NCBI GenBank assembly: GCA_951406725.2
Contig: OX597820.1
Span: 28,396,001-28,460,000 of the forward strand
Source: Octopus vulgaris
Taxonomy: Eukaryota
DNA length: 64,000 nt
Direction: 5' to 3'
Below, in pieces: positions 3,458-60,621 of the stretch (positions within the stretch are counted from its first letter, which is position 1; each line of letters starts with the position of its first letter). The notes beneath the pieces were generated by a model. That model was not told the DNA's origin, searched no databases, and saw only the letters and a list, made by a program, of their open reading frames with translations. Made by a program: the position numbers and the translations under genes.

Positions 3458-3530
3458 GGGACTATAACTCCAAACTTACAGGGAAAAATTAAATTTAGTA
3501 TTAAATCAAATTTCATAGTATAAATATATA
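3455..3530 (+). repeat. Fragment of a dispersed repeat next to microsatellites (same family as 60470-60620)
   Basis: TCCAAACTTACAGGGAAAAA...ATTTAG.ATTAAATC recurs at 60490-60535. Confidence 0.6.
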
Positions 3531-3575
3531 ATATATACATGCATACACACAGGGGTACATGTATATCCATCTATC

Positions 3576-8944: not shown

Positions 8945-9620
8945 TATATATATTATTATCATTATTATATATTTATCACTGTATAAAAATAACTTTCGCA
9001 TTCGCCTTTCCTCTGTAACTTATCAAGTTTCCGAGTTTGTTTACAAAATATTATATGTAATTCTCGACAGTTATATTATCTGTGCATCGATTTAACTGAA
9101 AATGTATGGGTAAGTATTCAGGCTCAATTGCAAGGAACCATATTAGCGTTGATTTGTGGGTTCGATTCCAGCCGGGAATTAGCTCATCCTTTTTCAGTAA
9201 GTTATTTAGTTAAATGTTGCTTTAATCGGAGTATATATATATATATTATTATTATTATGATGATATATTATTGTATAGTTATTGTATAAAAGTGACCTTC
9301 GCAGTCGCTTTTCTTCCCTAACTTATCAAGTTTCCGAGTTTGTTTACAAAATATTATATGTAATTCCCGACAGTTATATTATCTGTGCATCGATTTAACT
9401 GAAAATTTATGGGTAAGTATTCAGGCTCAATTGCAAGGAACCATATTAGCGTTGATTTGTGGGTTCGATTCCAGCCAGGAATTAGCTCATCCTTTTTCAG
9501 TAAGTTATTTAGTTAAATGTTGCTTTAATCGGAGTATATATATATTATTATTATTATTATTATTATGATATATTATTGTATAGTTATTGTATAAAAATGA
9601 CTTTCGTAGTCGCTTTTCCT
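8945..9620 (+). repeat. ~303-bp tandem repeat (2 full units plus a partial) containing a tRNA-like B-box
   Basis: AACTTATCAAGTTTCCGAG at 9017 and 9320. GGTTCGATTCC occurs in each full unit. Confidence 0.9.
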
Positions 9621-11037
9621 CCGTATATAAATATATATATGTATGTATATGAACATATCTATGTATATGAATATATCTATTATGCTTACGTATTCATTTT
9701 GAAAGATTTCTGATGCAAAATCGTGTGTAGAAACATATATTGTTATATGACGGAATGAAGACCCGAGGAATGGAGAGTTGCTGAAGGGGACACAGGCTGT
9801 GAGACGAAGAGTGCAAAACATTACATCCCGAAATATATATATATATGCATATATATACCACTCCCATTTACACATTTGCACTATGACACCCTTAATATAT
9901 GTATATCATTGAAAAGTCTGTCTGTATTGGTGTCTAGGAAGTAGACCTTATTGAGGGGCAGACGAGAACGACTGATGCGCATTTCGCCTTTGCAGTCTGA
10001 CATGAAATCGCATCGTCCTACATTTCCACATATGCAGCAAGTTTCAAAATTTGACATGACTATTAAAGCACTATTCAGTCGTATGGTATAAGAAACAGAA
10101 GATACATTGATAAATATTTTGTTTCTATATTTTACTTCAATCTTACTTTACTTTGTCCGTAAATTATACATTCAGAACCATTATGTCCTAAGTATTATTC
10201 CATGCATTCATTTAACACCATATATATATACATCTACTACATATGTGAGAAATTCTGTCTGTAGGTGTGTTTGTGGAGTTGTTAGCTACCTCCTCCTACA
10301 CCCTCCTCTCTGTGTGTTTTCGTTTGTGTGTGTGTGTATGTGTGTGTGTTTGTGTGTGTGTATCACCGTCTGATAATGGTAAGTACTCAACAATATATAA
10401 GTGTTGTGTATCGACAAAAGAGCTGAAACGTCAGACAAAATAAAGTATTATACATGTACTCCCTCCGGTTTATTCAAATATCCATTGCCCAGCCAAATCT
10501 TTAGCTTTTTTAGCAATGTAAGAAATCAATAATAGAGAAAATAAAATATTTTCATCTAAAGAATACGCTTGCCCTTGCCAGCAATTATTTTTGTTATTGA
10601 ATAAAAATAAAAGGTGATAAATTCATTCTCATACAGTAATATATTTAATAACATTTGAACGTCAGTTTTGAGACGACTGCATTAAATATGAGTGCAAGAC
10701 ACTTTATTTCGACTACTAACTGGATAATAACAACACACCTGCATAATAAGACAGACAAGTCGTTTATAATTCGTCTATAATTTACTCCACTTACAAAGAA
10801 CCAATATATTTCACTGTTCCTCGTTGTTCATCTATATTTATTCCGGCAAGAGACATCGCTATGGTTTTCAAATAAATCTACATATAACTACATTCTGTAT
10901 ATACGAGTGTGTGCTTGTGTATTTATATGTGCGTGTGTGTCTTTGTGTATTTGTGTGTATAATATTTATTACATATATGTATACATGTGAATTTATATAT
11001 ATTTATAGATTTACATACTTCTTATATATCTAATATA

Positions 11038-13552: not shown

Positions 13553-13611
13553 TCTTCTTGTCTTCTCTCGAACATAGTTAAATAGATAAACAAATAGACA
13601 GATCATCCAGC

Positions 13612-14520
13612 ATGTCCAGAGCATGGAGACCTGACGAGCTGGATTTATTCGTACAAGCATGGGAGTGCGCCGGCGGAGATAGTCCTAGCGAGGTGATTGC
13701 GGCTGCGCTGAAGAGCAGAGGCTACAAGAGGACAGCGGCTCAGATGGAGCGAAAGAGACGGGAATTCGTGCGCTCATATGCGCTTGTACGGTCGCACATT
13801 GGCGCATTTGATGCCATCTTTGAGAACGAGCGGGGCAAAGATGACAAGAATGGAGACGATGAAAGAAGTCACCCCCACCTGGTGGATGCCCGGGAGGAGG
13901 TTTTGAATGAGAAACCTGCCCGGGAAGTGAACCCAGGTGCAAGTTCTCCAACCGGCAGCAAAGGCCATGGAGACGGAGAACCCGGTGAAGAGGTAGAGGG
14001 AGGGGGAAGAACTAAAAGAAGGGCTGGTAGAGCTAAAGGAAAAGCTCAAGCAGGACCAAAGGGTGAAAAAACCAGGAATAGAAGTGGAACCGCAAAAGAT
14101 GGAAACGGACAGCGCACACGGGTGTGTAGGTTCTACCTGAGAGGTTCCTGCTGGCATGGAAAGGAAGGTGCAGGCTGCCGCTTTGCACATCGGGGACCCT
14201 GCCACAGAGACACGAGGCAGATGGACAAACCATCAACACAAGGAAAAGGGATGGACCACGCACCACTTGCCCCAAAGCGGAGGTACGCAGATGTTGTGCG
14301 TGCCACAAACCACCAACATGATGTTGTCGAAAGGGCAGCTGCTGAGCAACAATCTTTTTTGTGCATGGCACAAAAGATTGTACAGCAGCTGACCTGGCTT
14401 CATCAAACCCAAGCCCGCAGGTGGGACTACCCACTATACACCAGACCACCACCACAGCAAACAGACCCAGGATGGACACCACCGGCAACAACGTACACCT
14501 CACCTCGATGCTCCTACTGA
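13612..14520 (+). CDS. LINE ORF1 protein (302 aa): N-terminal Myb/SANT(trihelix)-like domain, charged low-complexity linker, CCCH zinc finger
   Basis: WRPDELDLFVQAW...IAAALKSRGYKRTAAQMERK...Y resembles the Myb_DNA-bind_4 pattern. CRFYLRGSCWHGKEGAGCRFAH is C-x7-C-x8-C-x3-H (14125-14190). A YADVV motif follows. The ORF lies directly upstream of, and overlaps, ORF2. Confidence 0.85.
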   Translation: MSRAWRPDELDLFVQAWECAGGDSPSEVIAAALKSRGYKRTAAQMERKRREFVRSYALVRSHIGAFDAIFENERGKDDKNGDDERSHPHLVDAREEVLNEKPAREVNPGASSPTGSKGHGDGEPGEEVEGGGRTKRRAGRAKGKAQAGPKGEKTRNRSGTAKDGNGQRTRVCRFYLRGSCWHGKEGAGCRFAHRGPCHRDTRQMDKPSTQGKGMDHAPLAPKRRYADVVRATNHQHDVVERAAAEQQSFLCMAQKIVQQLTWLHQTQARRWDYPLYTRPPPQQTDPGWTPPATTYTSPRCSY

Positions 14521-17467
14521 ACATCAGAGGACTGCAAACACTCAGTAACAGGACAAAAATCCCGTTCCTGAGAGATTTTGTTGCATGCAATCAAGCCTTA
14601 TGCATAGCACTAACGGAAACGCACCTGAAACCGGATATAGCAGATGCGGAGTTACACATACCACAGTATGCTGTACTACGGACCGACAGGAAAGAAAGGA
14701 GTCATGGAGGTGTTGCTATGTACATCCGTGAGGACCTCACACCCCAGGTCCTCTTGTCATACTCAAACTCGGTGTGTGACACACTAATTGTACATATTAG
14801 GCAACTTGATGTAGTTGTGTGTGCTACATATCGCCCTCCAGATGCCCCAAGCCACGTGGGCAAGTTTGAAGACTGCCTTATAAAAATAGAATAAGTTCTA
14901 ACCACATTAGAACAACACATAAGTGTACTTCTTATGGGAGACTTCAATCTGCCAAATGCCAGATGGCCCGAGGGCCTTTCTCTCCCAGGAATGACAAGAT
15001 GTGAACGAGGACAGGCGAGGCCCCTCCTGAACCTCATCAACACCCTGTACATGGAGCAGGTAATACTCCAACCAACCAGGGCAGGTAACACACTGGATCT
15101 CTGCTTCACAAATGATATGGATCTCATCCATAATGTGAAAGTGACACCGACACTACTCTCGGATCACAACATGATAGAGCTGACCATGTACGGGCCAAAA
15201 GAGAGCACGGACATGCAGCCTACAAGAAACCCCAGAATCTTTCCAGCTTGAACTACCATAAGGCAAACTGGAAACAAATTGAGAAAGAGATCCTCAAACA
15301 AAACTGGCCTAAATGTCTCTCCTCGCCAGACATCGACGTGAAACTTCAACAATTCATGTCTGTAATGCAAGCCATATGCTACAAATATGTCCCAGAGAGA
15401 AAGGCCACTGTACACAAGAACAAAATCCCCAGAGAGAGGAAAATTCTAATGAGACGGCGTACAAAATTTTCAAATCGCCTAAACAAACAGATTGAAAGCA
15501 GTGAAAAGTCCCGCCTAAAAATAAAACTGTTGGAAATCGAAAAATGTCTGAAACTCTCCCATGAAAAGGAAAGAGCAGACAAAGAAGCCTGGGCTATAGA
15601 CAACATAAAATCTAACCCCAGAGCTTTCTACAGGTATGCCAAAGAAACAGCTACGATGCACTGTAGAATAGGGCCACTCCTCGAAAAGGATGGCACACTT
15701 ACAGGAAAACCAATGAGGGTAAGTGAAATACTGAATGAGCAATTCAAGAGTGTTTTCACTCCACCCCTTGGGCATCTCCAAATCACCAATCCAACTGACT
15801 TTTTTACCACTGCAGATATAAAATCAGAGGCGGCGACGATAGATTACATCGATATAAAGGAAGACGATGTAATCAAGGCTATAGATGAAATGAAAACAGA
15901 CTCAGCTATTGGCCCCGATGGATTCCCGGCAATCCTCCTAAAAGCATGTAAGAGAGTCCTAGCAAGACCACTGCAGTTCCTCTTTCAGAGCTTCCTTGCA
16001 GCTGGCAAACTTCCAAGAAAACTGAAGGAAGGTAAAATATGCCCCATTCATAAAGGAGGTAGCAGAGCGGAAGCCAAGAACTATAGACCTATCTCTCTGA
16101 CCTCACACATCAGCAAGGTCATGGAACGAATAGTCAGAAGGAAGCTGATCACCTTCCTTGAAGAAAATGACTTGCTGCCCGACACCCAACATGGTTTCCG
16201 ACCAGGGAGAAGCTGTTTAACTCAGCTCCTACAACACTATGACTGGGTGCTGAAACGGCTGCTCAACCACTCAAATGTGGAAGTGATATATCTCGACTTT
16301 GCAAAGGCCTTTGATAAAGTCGATCATGGAATGATATGTCACAAACTGCGTGATCTCAACATAGTTGGAAAACTGGGAGAATGGCTTCATGACTTTCTGA
16401 AAGATAGAAGTCAGGTGGTAGTGGCCAATGGGGCCACTTCCATTAACACGCAAATAGTGAGCGGTGTTCCGCAGGGCACTGTTCTGGGACCACTACTGTT
16501 CATAATGGCCCTCTCAGACATGCCCTCAGCCACGCAGAGAGCCACGATCACAAGTTATGCAGATGATACAAAAGTTTCACAAGCAATACAGAACCCTGAG
16601 GACACTAAACACCTGCAATGTGAGCTAGACAAAATATATAAGTGGGCCGAAAAGAATAGCATGCAGTTCAATGCTGAAAAGTTTCAAGCTCTATACTATC
16701 AGCATGCAAAACTAAATGCAATACCCAATGAATACACTGGACCCGGAGGAATAGCAATCCCAGAGGCACAATCAGTGCGTGACCTAGGTATTTACATGAG
16801 TGATGACGCGACCTTTCGTGTACATGTTGCTAAATTGGCAATGAAATGTAGACGACTGGCCGGATGGATCCTCAGAACCTTTAGAACAAGAGAACAAGAA
16901 ACCATGATGGTCCTCTGGAGGACACTTGTCCTAAGCCACTTTGACTACTGCTCTCAGTTATGGTCACCATCCAGTGTCAAGTTGATCACAGAGCTCGAAG
17001 CGATCCAACGTAGCTACACGAAGAAGATAGCCTCTATGCAGAATGTAAGCTACTGGGAAAGACTCAGGAAATTAAAATTATATTCCCTGGAGCGTAGGCG
17101 GGAAAGATATGCCATAATATACATCTGGAAGATCCTGGAGGGAAGTGTCCTGAACTTTGGCATCGAGAGTTACGCAAATGCCAGAACTGGGCGCCACTGC
17201 GTGGTGCCTAGGACTCCAAACTTGCCATCAAGATGTAGGACAAGATTCTGTGATAGCCTGGGCTTCCGAGGCCCACAGCTCTTCAATATCCTCCCGAAGA
17301 ACCTGAGAGACCTGCATGGGGTGGATACAGATGTCTTTAAAATGAAGCTGGATCTCTTCCTGTCAGGTGTCCCAGATGAACCAACTTCACGGCAGGAGGG
17401 GCAGATGATGGCAGCTGCATCGAACTCTCTCATTCACCAAATAGCAGTTGCTAGAAAGCCTTCATGA
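14472..17467 (+). pseudogene. LINE ORF2 (apurinic endonuclease + reverse transcriptase), disrupted by a TAA at 14892-14894 and a 1-nt frameshift near 15240-15248
   Basis: APE motifs LLNIRGL, ALTETHL, GGVAMYI, YRPP, MGDFN, LDLCFTN, SDHNMI. RT motifs NYRPISLTS, QHGFRPGRSC, YLDFAKAFDKVDH, GVPQGTVLGPLLF, YADD. CR1-type C-terminus LYSLERRRERY. Confidence 0.93.
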
Positions 17468-20471: not shown

Positions 20472-20625
<154 letters not shown>

Positions 20626-20719
20626 GAAATAGGTTTCAAAGAAAAAGACTACACGTGGTATAAATAAGGGGAAAGTAGGAAGAATGTAAAGACTTTTTAA
20701 AATCTGGTGTAGTATTTCG

Positions 20720-21860
20720 GTTAACTTACTTAATGTTTGTATGTCTATTTGCTTTGCTCGTTTCATGCCATCATTTATTAATGATGTTGGGTAATGTCTC
20801 CTGATTAGTGTTGATTTACGTTCAAGGTGTCTTCGTTCACGATTATTGGTATCTGAAACTTTTCGCTAGGTTATAAGGTATATTAATTTTTATGTGTTTG
20901 GGTTAACATGATTTGAATAATAGGTATTGTTTTGAATCTGTGGGTTTATAGATGTCCGTTTCGGTGTGGTTATTGGTTATTTTAATTAGGATGTCAAGAA
21001 TGGAAGTTTTTTATTGTTGTATTCCATTGTGAATTGTATATTGCTATTGATATTGCCGATCATTATTTTGAAATCGACGAGTTTGTCCATGCTGTTGTTC
21101 CAAAGTAGGAAGCAATCATTTAAGTATCTCTTCCAGTTCTCCTTAAAATAGCAATGCAAACGAGGTACCGCATTTTGTAATGATAATTGGTATATTTTAA
21201 GTTCTATATAACCCATTACAACGTTCGAAATCACTGGGGCAGCTCGAGTTCCCATTGCTATTCCACATTTGTCGATAGTAAACTATATCGAACATGGCAT
21301 AGTTGTTCTGTAGGATAAATTTCACTGCTGCAATTATGACGTTATGGTTGATGTCTCGTGGGATCTCTTCTTGGTATTTTTCTAGCTAGAAAGTAATTGC
21401 TTCTATACAAAAATCGTGTGGGATATTAGCGTACAAATTTACCACATCGAATGATACTAACAGGGTTCCTTCATTTATTGTTTTCGGGACGTGGTTAAGA
21501 ATGTCTAAATCATCCGTGATGAAGCTTATCACATATTTTTTAAATGGTTTAAGATGTCGAGGCAATAGCTCCAACGGTGGGTTTCCAAGCAGGCTCAGCA
21601 CTGCTGGGTCTTAGATTGAGGTCAGTAGTGGGAGGAACATTAATGTATAGGCTTGGAAAATGTTTGCAAGCTTTACTAATATGTGGATTTCTGTGTATTT
21701 TAGGTAATCCGTAGAATAGACATTGTCTGCATTTAAAAATGGATAAATAGTCAATTTATGTTTTAGTGAGGCCCTTCCCATGTATTGGAAGTAAGAAGGA
21801 TATGTTTTTAAAGTTCTTTAAGTGTTATAGTGCTCTATCTTCTCATAGTAAATATAGTTT
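20720..21860 (-). mobile_element. Penelope-like element RT fragment (degraded)
   Basis: LVSFDVVNLYANIP, MGTRAAP, WKRYLNDCF, IQFTME...[23 protein letters not shown], with stops and frameshifts. Confidence 0.85.
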
Positions 21861-22420
21861 TCCACACACAACCATAGAAATAATGAGACCTTCAACCTCA
21901 TCATCCGAAACCTACCCATTCTCACTGGAGATAAAGCAATGAACAACATTTTAGGCTTACACAAAATTATCAAGAACAAAACGCGACCGATATCATCGAA
22001 AAAATATTAACCAGCGAAAGACTATATCCATTAACAACGGCACCAAAAGTGTAAAATACGGGCGGCTTAACTGTGGCACATGCCCCTACCTTTTGAAAGG
22101 TACAGAGTTTCACCTTCAAGTTTCTCCTGCACCTTTGAAAACTGCTATTACCTCCTTAGGGTGCAGAAATTACTATATAGACCAAACAGGTATGCCATTC
22201 CGACGAAGAACAACACTTCACAAAGAACAATTCCGCTACGCACAATATATACAGGTCAGTGGGTGCATAGGAAGATGTGCTAGGAACCTTAAACCGAAAT
22301 TCCTAATTTTCTCTTTTTATCAATGTTCACAGAACACCTCTGTACAGTAAATAGGCAAATTTCATTATTAAATATTATCCACTACTCAACATGAACACCC
22401 AGCTTAATATAGGACACTAC
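21861..22420 (+). mobile_element. Penelope-like element linker and GIY-YIG endonuclease fragment, inverted relative to the RT
   Basis: FNLIIRNLPIL linker, CGTCPYL zinc-knuckle and NYYIDQTG (YIGQTG-like). Confidence 0.7.
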
Positions 22421-23897
22421 TTACCAGACTAATACCAATAATCTCCATAGATACCATACACCATTCATATTCCAGTATTTATAACTAACTTAATTGTAAC
22501 ACTTTAAGAACTCCTTACATACATTGTATGTAATCTTTTCACTCGGGTACTATTAGACCGAACAACGTTTGGAAATCGGTGTACATTTAAAGTCAGAGAT
22601 CAGCTCTGACGATACCGATATTACATTGAATCTCTATACTGATTCATAATAATGATTTTTATACTTCATAATTCCCCCTCAAATAATCTAATTGTATGTA
22701 TATATCTTCGCTTTTCTTAAACAGCCTTTATTTTTTATATCTAATGTGTATTTTTGTTTTCTTTTTTCCCCCCCCCCATATATATATATATATATACATA
22801 CATACATACATATATTCATATATATATACATTAATAATTAGGAATAGAGTATCTGACATCTTTATATATATTACAATTATATTACAGTGTGGGTTGTTCT
22901 CAAACACATGTCTACTTAGACCTAAGGTAGGTAATTCAACATATCACAAGGTGCACACACACACACACACACAAAGGTACACACACACACACACACTATT
23001 AAGGCTTAGGATAATATCAAATATTCTTAAATAAATAAAACCTAATTAATATTGTTCATTGAGTCTGTGAAAATAGATGTTTCAGTGTGAGTTGACAGGT
23101 TGTGTGTGGATTCTTACTATGAGAAGATAGAGTATCATAAAATTAAACAATAAACATATCCCTTTACTTAATCAAGGCTCACTAAAACATTTTTATCCAT
23201 TTTAAAGAGACAAGGTGTCATAGTTACCTAAAAACAGAAAGTTCACATATGTGGCTTGCAAAATATTACATACTCGCACACACACATACATGCAGTGCAC
23301 ACACAACATACACAGACCGGAGAGAAAACCATGGAAAAAAAGAAGAGAAAATGAGTGAAAATACAATAAGAATATATAGTATCATTCGATGTGGAAATTT
23401 GTCTCCACGACACATATAAACATTTTCAACAAAATACCATATCAATACTTTAACATATACATAGATAATTTATTCTTATATATATTTAGGTTTACTATAA
23501 ACAAAATATGAATATAATAAAGGAAACATAGAACTTAAAATATACCAATATCATTACAAACAAATGCATATTTACATTGCTATTTAGGAGAACAGAAGAA
23601 TAAATATATTCCTACTACAACAGCATATAACTCACACAAAATACATGATCACAATATCACATATAATATACATATATACACATATATATGTATATAAACT
23701 TCCATTCTTGACACATATATTATATAAACAAACAACCACATATCATATAGATAAACACAATATATTATTCAAATTTAACAAACACATAAATAATAATATA
23801 TTATAGCTGAATGCAGAGACTAAATCAACACTAATCAGGAGACGCCACCAACATCATTAATGTTAAATAATGACAACTGTGTTATACAAACATTATA

Positions 23898-27955: not shown

Positions 27956-28206
<251 letters not shown>

Positions 28207-28499
28207 ATATCACCATGCACCTCAAAATCAATATATCGTGGACAATGTATCTATGTTTCTGAGATAATTATAAGATTTCAGACCAGGCACAAATTTCAAA
28301 GAGTAATTTTGTAAGCTACGACGTTTTTAAGACTGGAAAAGTGTGGCATGAAGGTAACCAAAACAATAAATAGTACCATCGAGAAACATTGTAGAGGACT
28401 CATAGCTAGTTATCTCACAATATATCTTTCTATGTAACTTTTCGCGACTCAAAGCACATTTGAGAAGACGTTGTAATGCGGCGATGAGAACATTATATG

Positions 28500-28690
28500 T
28501 ATCTCTTTACTCTTTTAATTGTTTCAGTTATGTGACTGTGGCCATGCTGGAGCACCGCCTTTAGTCGAGCAAATCGACCCCAGGACTTATTCTTTGTAAG
28601 CCTAGTACTTATTCTATCGGTCTCTTTTGCCGAACCGCTAATTTACGGGGACGTAAACACACATCAGGCGATGTATGTATAAGTCAATAT
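28500..28690 (-). mobile_element. SINE family A, 3' half
   Basis: The minus strand ends GGCGGTGCTCCAGCATGGCCACAGTCACATAACTGAAAC...GAGTAAAGAG. Confidence 0.85.
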
Positions 28691-38077: not shown

Positions 38078-38099
38078 TTATATATGTATATATAATCAT

Positions 38100-38315
38100 T
38101 TATTCTTTTGTTTGTTTCATTCACATGACTGCAGCCATGCTGGAAAATCACCTTAAACGATTTTGGTGGAATAAATCAACACCAGGACTTATTGTTTGTA
38201 AGCCTAGTACTAATTCTATCAGTCTCTTTTGCCGAATCGTTACGTTACGGGGACGTAAACACACCAACAAGTGATGGTGGAGAGACAAACACAGACTCAA
38301 AGGCACAGACACACA
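38100..38315 (-). mobile_element. SINE family A, 3' part
   Basis: GCCATGCTGG...GGACTTATT.TTTGTAAGCCTAGTACT...ACGGGGACGTAAACACACCA. Confidence 0.75.
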
Positions 38316-38682: not shown

Positions 38683-39692
38683 AATTGTTGAAATTATAAT
38701 TAATCTCCCTCTAATTAATGCTTCGGATTTTACCGAAATAAGCATAGCGTTTGATGATTTTAACCCACGCTGGTGGAAAGGGGAGAACAGAAATTCTTCA
38801 CTTGCTTATTTGGGTTAGTTGGCACTGTTAGTTACGAGCGGATCTTCGAAAGGGTATGTTCTTACTTTCAGTGTTTCCAAATCCAAACCAAGGAGTTGTT
38901 GAGCTGAAGATAGAAATGTTGTTTTGACTAATCTTGAAACGTACGTTCTCAAATAACCTTAGCATTTGATTTTTTAATGTCCTTACCCCCAAACTTTTGT
39001 GAGTTGAATTAAGCAAACGCTATATATGAGAGAGATTTTCTTTAAGTATTAGAAATAGCTTTAAAAAAGTTTTTTAGCTGCTATTTCTAATGAGTTCAGT
39101 ATGCGGCAAAGTAATTTATTTTACTAAGCCCTTTTATATAATGTAATAATTTGAATTCGCCTTAAATGGTCCCTTTGCATACTGAACACTTGGTGAAATT
39201 GATTAATAATTAATTAATTTTACCCTCAATTGTTGAAATTATAATTAATCTCCCTCTAATTAATGCTTCGGATTTTACCGAAATAAGCATAGCGTTTGAT
39301 GATTTTAACCCACGCTGGTGGAAAGGGGAGAACAGAAATTCTTCACTTGCTTATTTGGGTTAGTTGGCACTGTTAGTTACGAGCGGATCTTCGAAAGGGT
39401 ATGTTCTTACTTTCAGTGTTTCCAAATCCAAACCAAGGAGTTTTTGAGCTGAAGATAGAAATGTTGTTTTGACTAATCTTGAAACGTACGTTCTCAAATA
39501 ACCTTAGCATTTGATTTTTTAATGTCCTTACCCCCAAACTTTTGTGAGTTGAATTAAGCAAACGCTATATATGAGAGAGATTTTCTTTAAGTATTAGAAA
39601 TAGCTTTAAAAAAGTTTTTTAGCTGCTATTTCTAATGAGTTCAGTATGCGGCAAAGTAATTTATTTTACTAAGCCCTTTTATATAATGTAAT
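38683..39692. repeat. 545-bp near-identical tandem duplication (~1.85 units), probably a Penelope-derived terminal repeat
   Basis: Units start at 38683 and 39228. The ORF-track peptides at 38828 and 39373 differ by one residue. Confidence 0.85.
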
Positions 39693-54917: not shown

Positions 54918-54974
<57 letters not shown>

Positions 54975-54977
<3 letters not shown>

Positions 54978-55027
54978 CTTCCTGATGATTTCTCTTGAAT
55001 GAAACAGTTCTAGTCCTGTAGAAGCTC
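54975..55027 (+). ncRNA. Type I hammerhead ribozyme, copy 1
   Basis: GAGCTTC-CTGATGA-T(TTC tctt GAA)T-GAAA-CAG ttctagtc CTG-TA-GAAGCTC. 7-bp stem I; predicted cut after A55020. Confidence 0.8.
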
Positions 55028-55109
55028 CTTCTATATAATAAATTAATTTTACTCTGCTATGTATTGAGTACCTTATTTACTGTGGTTAACCCCGAATCAA
55101 CCCGGGACC

Positions 55110-55154
<45 letters not shown>

Positions 55155-55168
55155 TTATTTTATAGAAG

Positions 55169-55221
55169 GAGCTTCTACAGGACTAGAACTGTTTCATTCA
55201 GAAGAAATCATCAGGAAGCTT
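55169..55221 (-). ncRNA. Type I hammerhead ribozyme, copy 2 (inverted)
   Basis: Reverse complement of copy 1 with loop II TTCT. Confidence 0.8.
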
Positions 55222-55268
55222 CCTGATGATTTCTTTTGAATGAAACAGTTCTAGTCCTGTAGAAACTC
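55217..55268 (+). ncRNA. Type I hammerhead ribozyme, copy 3
   Basis: Same core with loop II TTTT and one stem I substitution (GAAACTC). Confidence 0.75.
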
Positions 55269-55349
55269 CTTCTATAAAATAAATTAATTTACTCTGCTAT
55301 GTATTCAGTACCTTATTTACTGTGGTTAACCCCGACTCAACCGGGGACC

Positions 55350-55400
<51 letters not shown>

Positions 55401-55568
55401 GTATATGTATAAACACATACACATATATATATATATATATATTATTCATTTCTATAGCTATGTATATAAATTAAATCGTATGTATGCATAAATATAAGTA
55501 TGTATGTATATATATGGATATATATGAGTGTGTGTGTGTTATTATCAATATATCTATCTATACATTTG

Positions 55569-55635
<67 letters not shown>

Positions 55636-60076: not shown

Positions 60077-60143
<67 letters not shown>

Positions 60144-60161
60144 GTATATGTATACACACAT

Positions 60162-60193
<32 letters not shown>

Positions 60194-60407
60194 TATTCAT
60201 TTCTATAGCTACGTATACAAATGAAATCGTATGTATGTATGTATATATATGGATATATATATGAGTTCGTGTGTCTCTGTGTTATTATCAATATATCTAT
60301 CTATATATTTGTCTATATATCTATCTATCTATCTATCAGTCTATCTAGCTATGCAATTATCTAACTATCTATCTATTTTTCATATATCGAACCATCTACG
60401 TAGCTAT

Positions 60408-60471
<64 letters not shown>

Positions 60472-60549
60472 ATAAATATTAGGGAATAAATCCAAATTTA
60501 CAGGGAAAAAATCAGATTTAGGATTAAATCCAATTTTATAGTAAAATAT

Positions 60550-60608
60550 TATATAATATTAATTCGAGTCAAAACCACTATTTTGCAAAATAGTGGTTTT
60601 GTCTCGAA

Positions 60609-60621
<13 letters not shown>
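60550..60621. repeat. 72-bp palindrome centred on TTTTGCAAAA
   Basis: TATATAATATTAATTCGAGTCAAAACCACTATTTTG|CAAAATAGTGGTTTTGTCTCGAATTAATATTATATA, one mismatched pair. Confidence 0.9.

Follow-up and report, generated by a model that had tools for sequence, protein, structure and literature searches.

Hammerhead units in a (TA)n microsatellite of Octopus vulgaris probably derive from truncated Penelope-like element ends

A (TA)n microsatellite in a 64,000-nt stretch of Octopus vulgaris DNA (the window) holds three copies of a hammerhead-bearing unit, two of them direct and one inverted. Judged by analogy with described Penelope-like elements (PLEs), these are very probably 5′-truncated, dead-on-arrival copies of the hammerhead end of a PLE, whose parent we infer. 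The motifs and the palindrome that they form are of a known kind, namely truncated PLE-type pseudo-LTR (pLTR) ends, accompanied by an inverted copy and tailed on one side. The features of the locus are given below, with positions counted from the first letter of the window.

54924..54973: (TA)25 tract, left target flank
54975..55112, plus strand: copy 1, element 3′ end consisting of the hammerhead and 92 nt, long 'tail' end
54975..55027, plus strand: type I hammerhead of copy 1, core 54982-54988, predicted cut after 55020
55084..55112, plus strand: terminal stem-loop of copy 1 with an A/C-rich loop, just 5′ of the long 3′ end, −7.6 kcal/mol
55113..55149: (TA)n tract separating both insertions
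55149..55220, minus strand: copy 2, inverted, with the short 3′ end (23-27 nt past the cut) and no tail
55220-55170, minus strand: hammerhead of copy 2, helix I of 6 bp, predicted cut after 55176
55217..55220: self-complementary AGCT, palindrome centre and helix I 5′ end
55217..55352, plus strand: copy 3, element 3′ end with tail
55217-55268, plus strand: hammerhead of copy 3, private C·A mismatch at 55265, nominal cut after 55261
55153..55284: 132-bp palindrome, predicted RNA hairpin of −99.5 kcal/mol
55324..55352, plus strand: terminal stem-loop of copy 3, −10.8 kcal/mol, loop holding two common family variants (55335, 55336)
55353..55399: (TA)n tract, right target flank

The two direct units were aligned by blastn. 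The original prediction had described a direct repeat of about 137 bp, and this is borne out: 54975-55112 and 55217-55352 share 94.9% identity over 137 nt, with 6 substitutions and 1 indel (E = 1e-57). The palindrome that had been placed at 55153-55284 and centred on AAGCTT was recovered as well. It is 132 bp long and head to head, its 66-bp arms contain 2 mismatches, and its centre lies between 55218 and 55219. Four nucleotides, AGCT at 55217-55220, are common to inverted copy 2 and direct copy 3, and the first base, an A, is identical in all three copies. Between the palindrome arms there are 2 private substitutions, and the arms stop at two different points, both typical of the family. Two of the differences between copies 1 and 3 are common variants of the family (55036/55277 and 55096/55336), and the others are private. 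Copy 1 is preceded by one G before helix I that is absent from the upstream variants of other copies. All outer ends at the locus adjoin TA, which is reached 61-65 or 130 nt past C3; a target-site duplication is not readable in this TA, which counts against the reading as PLE ends. Unconstrained folding of the units gave z-scores between −0.96 and +0.82, which are not significant, and the ATGs within the ribozyme of the locus, as read from the sequence, meet a stop codon within 5 codons. The right flank (55395-55600) has a close paralog at 60140-60330, whose (TA)n tract contains no element. As a clean empty site this paralog was rejected, because the left flanks do not match.

The element family is a high-copy repeat. 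We surveyed it in contigs from public runs; 20 of the 24 listed runs, under four organism codes, contain part of the stretch. Four were aligned: X1 (9517 contigs), X2 (2137), and X10 and X18 (132 and 62). Depth in contigs is not equal to copy number, and the loose ends and contig records considered are 24 of 110 and 32 of 11,907, respectively. X10 and X18 are possibly RNA runs, and none of the listed holders is on record as RNA; the small number of A>G and T>C rows in X18 did not enter the analysis. The upstream body of other copies was read as 30-letter loose ends, which in all four runs continue upstream of helix I into non-TA sequence; one of the contigs listed continues for 382 nt. TA directly 5′ of the unit makes up less than 1% of the depth in X1 and X2. 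Since other copies run on upstream, the copies in the window are shortened at their 5′ side. At the 3′ side two ends recur in the four runs. The short end, 23-27 nt past the cut, is seen as loose (TA)n behind 55042-55047 or 55284. The long end lies 91-92 nt past the cut, and the TA depth directly after it amounts to 48-87% of the last unit bin. At the locus, the inverted copy carries the short end and the direct copies carry the long end. Most family depth adjoins TA at the outer ends, and most of it comes from non-palindromic copies with the upstream body.

Joints resembling the palindrome centre were also found in these contigs. The centre is crossed with 1-5 gap letters by 5 of the 32 contigs listed (of 11,907), and 3 of these 5 have 31 or more letters on each side. 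X1 has four further inverted-to-direct joints, whose centres lie 14-25 nt past C3. At least three bridged centres and the four further joints differ from the centre at the locus, and head-to-head junctions with differing centres indicate that such junctions are made repeatedly. The exact junction of the locus without gaps had no match among the 32 of 11,907 contigs listed, and no head-to-tail joint occurred among the joints listed for the four runs. DNA pattern scans for the family gave 0 matches each in viral, metagenome and prokaryote contigs.

The three hammerhead cores that had been predicted (CUGAUGA, GAAA and GUA) are present in every copy. All three copies additionally have a U·U pair plus a 3-bp helix II, and a 4-bp helix III with an 8-nt loop. 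A strict hammerhead descriptor matched 2 sites in the 64-kb window, namely those of copy 1 and of the inverted copy, against 0 matches in 200 approximate dinucleotide shuffles. Copy 3 fails this descriptor, since it has an A at 55265, where the other copies have G, and thus a C·A mismatch in helix I. As G is found at 55265 in 96.7-100% of the contig depth of the four public runs, the A of copy 3 is a private mutation. Copy 1 has a helix I of 7 bp; that of the inverted copy measures 6 bp, and that of copy 3 is reduced to 3+2 bp. The ribozyme differences had been assigned mainly to loop II, which is correct for two of three, and the third (55265) falls in helix I of copy 3. In both large runs, the ribozyme variants exceeding 20% of depth fall at N7 and in loop II only, a result from contigs with few variants. 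Single contigs of X18 hit the core and helix III at 55017, 55018 and 55245 (4-7% of depth) and at 55211 (11.3/38.3). Two common tail variants fall in the loop of the terminal hairpin. At these small numbers, the distribution of variants would fit a structure that is kept. In run X2 (organism B), the loose ends at 54976, 55217 and 55269 show both helix I arms seemingly 5 nt longer, which would make an 11-bp helix I; the two arms were not found together on one contig.

We also carried out the Rfam search that had been suggested as a check, and obtained no hammerhead match to the stretch at the gathering score or at E ≤ 10. The same search missed 12 of 12 control PLE loci carrying hammerhead motifs, so the null result at the locus is uninformative. 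Matches to miRNA families at E ≤ 10 were set aside as generic hairpin or TA matches that lie far under the gathering score.

Other repeats lie elsewhere in the window. A decayed Neptune-type PLE at 20623-22780 carries RT to thumb on the minus strand and a Cys linker plus GIY-YIG on the plus strand (tblastn E to 1e-36), with TA at both ends. It contains an internal inversion and a worn hammerhead core near 22607 and looks like a product of twin priming. Its fragments had no Pfam match and none in word-indexed protein searches, whereas a search of the full library matched; a PLE protein search of viral contigs gave no relative. A second worn RT piece is located at 23528-23875. At 38683-39690, a second hammerhead family forms a 545-bp head-to-tail partial tandem (463 bp at 99.8%) ending in TA. 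Each of its units has a minimal hammerhead (cores 38904 and 39449) with a palindromic helix III and a GUU site, and this arrangement suits a non-LTR retrozyme, or a partial pLTR tandem, more closely than the locus at 54975-55352 does. Inverted repeats of 128 bp (28082-28209 and 28562-28689, 96.9%) enclose a 350-bp core between (TAA)n tracts and are part of a SINE-like family that is also found at 1-124 and 38099-38264. A 303-bp tandem with 2.3 copies at 91% (8961-9625) lies between AT-rich tracts and had no hammerhead core in our scans. At 60486-60615, a short repeat, also present at 3464-3534, is followed by a 60-bp palindrome between simple repeats. Finally, 13582-17467 is an almost full-length LINE that carries ORF1, an endonuclease and an RT (PF00078, E = 3e-31).

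For comparison with PLEs we used a control set. An alignment of ten relatives of the PLE remnant at 20623-22780 led to 83 PLE loci, of which the 57 that have an ORF end and 150 or more nt behind it are referred to as Neptune-type loci. A sense hammerhead was found 68-372 nt behind the ORF in 24 of these 57 and an antisense one in 2, with a shuffled mean of 0.5; these counts include 3 of the 24 that nearly duplicate other loci. A (TA)4+ tract lies 60-170 nt after C3 in 14 of the 24 hammerhead controls and before C3 in none of them (0/24). The locus has the same layout, with a sense type I hammerhead and then (TA)n within ~60-170 nt. It also shares the targeting of (TA)n microsatellites, which is seen at the locus and in most of the family depth. 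In contrast, the minimal hammerhead with a short palindromic helix III that is found in 24 of 24 controls (palindromic, 0-6 nt) is not found here. Helix III of the locus measures 4 bp, that is, 3 pairs beyond A-U, with a non-palindromic 8-nt loop, and more than 2 such pairs occur in 0 of the 24 controls. Nor is there DNA similarity: the unit had no significant match to the 83 PLE loci (best E = 0.29), scored 41 against the 3′ UTR of the PLE remnant in the window (shuffled mean 36), and showed no DNA similarity to the second hammerhead family at 38683-39690. Given this and the longer, non-palindromic helix III, assignment to the Neptune clade would be tentative. A Cys-rich linker was seen solely in the remnant at 20623-22780, which is not linked to the unit. 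Palindromes within six control loci (L041, L043, L055, L069, L071 and L076) include none centred on a hammerhead and so give no support for a preferred centre. Some control loci have peculiarities of their own. The hammerhead core of L010, L015 and L056, all Neptune-type, has a covaried U3-A8. Animal-type PLE ORFs in two bacterial MAG records (L081 and L082) are on short contigs and probably represent host contamination. In L028 (1-60), where the hammerhead lies upstream of the ORF, TA-like letters at the contig start directly precede helix I, as they do in copy 1; this is an isolated case, located at the end of a contig.

Published work on PLEs describes insertions of the same build. According to the accessible text of PMC8557442, the insertion unit comprises a 5′-truncated copy and an adjacent inverted copy with a tail of 30-40 bp that is often one-sided, and is biased towards microsatellites. 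Available parts of PMC3846280 describe head-to-head, often palindromic junctions in which an inverted pLTR overlaps the direct one. The locus resembles such endonuclease-positive PLE units (PMC8557442; PMC3846280) in its head-to-head junction with a short overlap, its optional 3′ extension of one arm, its microsatellite target and its pLTR hammerhead. A hammerhead near the element 3′ end, 5′ truncation with a head-to-head inverted copy, and a one-sided tail were all found here. It differs in that its two ends lie ~65-69 bp apart, a longer one-sided tail than the 30-40 bp given in the published parts, and in that the insertion has no ORF; the ORF of a parent was not found. TA targeting is also described, in the text available to us, for Naiads, which lack canonical hammerheads (PMC8557442). 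Pairs of hammerheads on opposite strands have been read as truncated PLEs before, in Schistosoma Cercyon (PMC4209133, as far as its available text goes). These Cercyon pairs are close like those of the locus, but lie 100-700 bp apart and are without helix III, whereas ours are back to back with a 4-bp helix III. The main text of a paper on octopus repeats lists PLE families and leaves hammerheads unmentioned (PMC13282606).

A further parallel is provided by the Poseidon element PAc of Anolis (PMC11167929, accessible parts). Its RT starts internally in vitro at two tail-defining sites on an uncut RNA template. The internal start is given at 111-118 nt of the ORF and the cut at 26 nt; by our own arithmetic on these values, the start lies 85-92 nt past the cut, near an AC-rich stem-loop. 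The long end of the locus lies 92 nt past the cut, just after the hairpin with the A/C loop, and the ribozyme is kept whole. Both systems have an element end at 85-92 nt near an A/C-rich stem-loop, two ends, AT-rich targets and an uncut RNA template, which for the locus is proposed, whereas the PAc ORF, in the same accessible parts, starts inside the ribozyme. Taken together, the upstream body, the two 3′ ends, the (TA)n targets, the head-to-head junctions and the Neptune-like layout of hammerhead followed by TA support the part of the original prediction that called the locus a Penelope pLTR-like unit.

The other part of that prediction was a retrozyme: a plus-strand transcript of a tandem would be cut after 55020 and 55261, and the resulting 241-nt RNA would circularise. 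The cuts predicted here confirm the spacing of 241 nt. Same-strand cores at this distance fall inside the 150-450 bp range given for animal retrozymes in the available text of PMC7229834. Further likenesses to animal non-LTR retrozymes are the type I hammerhead, the non-coding nature, the low GC and the high copy number (PMC7229834; bioRxiv 10.64898/2026.07.22.740005; both from their accessible parts), and axolotl HHR_Amex2, as far as it is described there, shares the U·U pair at the base of helix II. The same sources define non-LTR retrozymes by a head-to-tail tandem. The units of the locus are not head-to-tail, since (TA)n and the inverted arm lie between them; the stretch from cut to cut is not a repeated monomer, the joints listed for the four runs include no head-to-tail one, and the second ribozyme is mutated and, by prediction, sequestered, unlike in those retrozymes. 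Folding was computed with nearest-neighbour energies, a treatment without tertiary contacts, proteins or kinetics. Copy 1 is merely +1.7 kcal/mol from the ribozyme fold until the antisense arm is transcribed, and +73.7 kcal/mol once the arm is finished. No other copy is predicted to fold, and this one would do so solely while the nascent RNA ends before ~55150. In an RNA starting at the first cut, the ribozyme fold of copy 3 costs +60.6 to +67.4 kcal/mol, and to have both ribozymes folded at once in uncut RNA costs +78.7 kcal/mol. Copy 3 alone, with its broken helix I, is +9.8 kcal/mol from the ribozyme fold, and on the minus strand the fold of the inverted ribozyme costs +68.4 kcal/mol.

As each of the sense copies is a possible pairing partner for the antisense arm, one ribozyme is always blocked in these calculations. 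The two cuts are therefore predicted, by energy and with a large margin (+60 to +79 kcal/mol), to be mutually exclusive, and double self-cleavage to a monomer was not found in computation (+60.6 to +78.7 kcal/mol). The release of a circularisable 241-nt RNA is accordingly not supported, and we give it next to no credence. In particular, the second cut after 55261 is argued against by the broken helix I of copy 3 and by the predicted sequestration of its ribozyme. The long competing hairpin that had been proposed is real in folding, but its predicted consequence, abolition of the second cut, had been missed. Should there be any transcription of the locus, copy 1 alone could cut, and read-through would give a 66-bp RNA hairpin of −99.5 kcal/mol.

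How the copies were inserted can be proposed from their anatomy and by analogy with the published PLE work, and the following steps appear most likely. The TA tract would be nicked by a PLE protein with RT and GIY-YIG. Reverse transcription would begin inside the RNA, just 3′ of the A/C-loop hairpin and 92 nt past the cut, and uncut RNA would be copied, which would retain the ribozyme whole. Copying would halt after ~137 nt at the 5′ end of helix I. For the right-hand insertion, the cDNA end may fold back on AGCT, or anneal there to a second cDNA, and the mirror arm would then extend as far as the AT-rich position 23-27 nt past the cut and join the TA target there. With a mirror arm that stops at this short point, the product would be an inverted copy with just one of the ends tailed. 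Copy 1 likely goes back to an insertion event of its own, probably from another source copy because two common family variants distinguish it from copy 3. Trimming of long tandem transcripts would be the task of the ribozyme in the parent element.

The common start base of the three copies is a more speculative matter. One proposal, to which we assign a rather low likelihood, is that the stubs are complete 'strong-stop' cDNAs instead of random truncations and that transcription starts with the first ribozyme base. This start would be set by a TATA box located 29 nt before helix I, and the RT, primed internally 92 nt past the cut, would run off the capped 5′ end, leaving the extra G of copy 1. 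Normally the RT would jump to the RNA 3′ end, where the ribozyme of a second pLTR would leave a terminal redundancy of 45 nt, similar to the R region of retroviruses. Failed jumps would anneal or fold back on AGCT and give palindromes. The shared first base, a TATA at −29 and the G of copy 1 suggest a start at helix I and run-off cDNAs. TATAAA begins at −29 in four of the loose-end rows listed (X1, X10 and X18; counted by hand), and a fifth row has the variant TATATA at −29 by homology, with intervening bases that vary; the TATA-bearing rows are related copies and not independent. Against the proposal, no TATA was found at −27 to −33 before helix I in the 24 Neptune-type controls, TG comes after 16 of the 58 TA tracts in the window in any case, and other junctions are centred 14-25 nt past C3, inside helix II. 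In the accessible parts of the literature, the D. virilis promoter is TATA-less and starts more than 120 nt before helix I (PMC2377424, PMC4209133), and A. vaga pLTRs have a putative TATA box (PMC3846280). Our literature search, mostly at the level of listings, found no earlier strong-stop proposal. A splice acceptor as the source of the shared 5′ end (the D. virilis intron ends at helix I) was set aside, since the copies include the AG.

The shared start is explained equally well if copy 1 is the surviving arm of a second palindrome, or of a local duplicate, whose mirror arm was lost by cleavage at the hairpin tip. Arm loss from a second palindrome would give a shared start base without any special 5′ end, in line with the same first A in all three copies and with the scarcity of TA directly 5′ of the unit in X1 and X2, and palindromes are generally unstable. 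The common and private variants that separate copies 1 and 3 speak against the local duplicate only, and we consider such a history of copy 1 possible, though doubtful. The palindrome could also be a self-contained mobile unit, MITE-like or fold-back-like, that moves whole. Similar palindromes do occur at other loci, but their centres vary between loci, the arms are unequal, and most family depth is non-palindromic with an upstream body, which makes this reading very improbable. Slightly less probable still is an assembly or amplification artefact. It would account for the missing gapless match to the exact junction among the 32 of 11,907 contigs listed, but hardly for arms that carry private substitutions and stop at family-typical points, or for similar junctions with other centres in other runs.

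A different question is the nature of the parent. Instead of a PLE, it may have been a non-coding, non-autonomous element of at least 0.5 kb, a pLTR-derived retrozyme or SINE-like element that borrows the PLE protein. The insertion chemistry would be the same as for PLE ends, and the parent is the only difference. The very high copy number, the upstream body of 382 nt in one contig and a ribozyme of monomer type, unlike the minimal hammerheads of Neptune, are consistent with such a parent, and animal retrozymes are reported as pLTR-derived in the available portion of bioRxiv 10.64898/2026.07.22.740005. On the other hand, 382 nt is close to the distance of 68-372 nt between ORF and ribozyme in Neptune-type loci, and the 3′ ends lead into TA and not into a next unit. 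We regard the non-autonomous parent as a minority possibility and retain truncated PLE ends as our preferred reading.

The locus itself is ordinary transposon debris of modest value. The family, in contrast, is young, very abundant, TA-targeting and of PLE type, and its ribozyme is predicted to be monomer-capable, unlike the typical minimal hammerheads of Neptune. Read-through of the palindromes, if they are transcribed, could feed small-RNA silencing, by analogy with flies, where inverted Penelope copies yield siRNAs (PMC3681739, accessible part). Thousands of family insertions record the points at which reverse transcription starts and stops. The formation of the pseudo-LTR, the tail and the inverted ends, and the purpose of the hammerhead, are left open in those parts of the PLE literature that were available. 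If transcription starts at helix I, this family would make the question of pseudo-LTR and hammerhead directly testable, and the strong-stop proposal, if true, would account for how pseudo-LTRs, tails and inverted ends originate and would assign a function to the PLE hammerhead.
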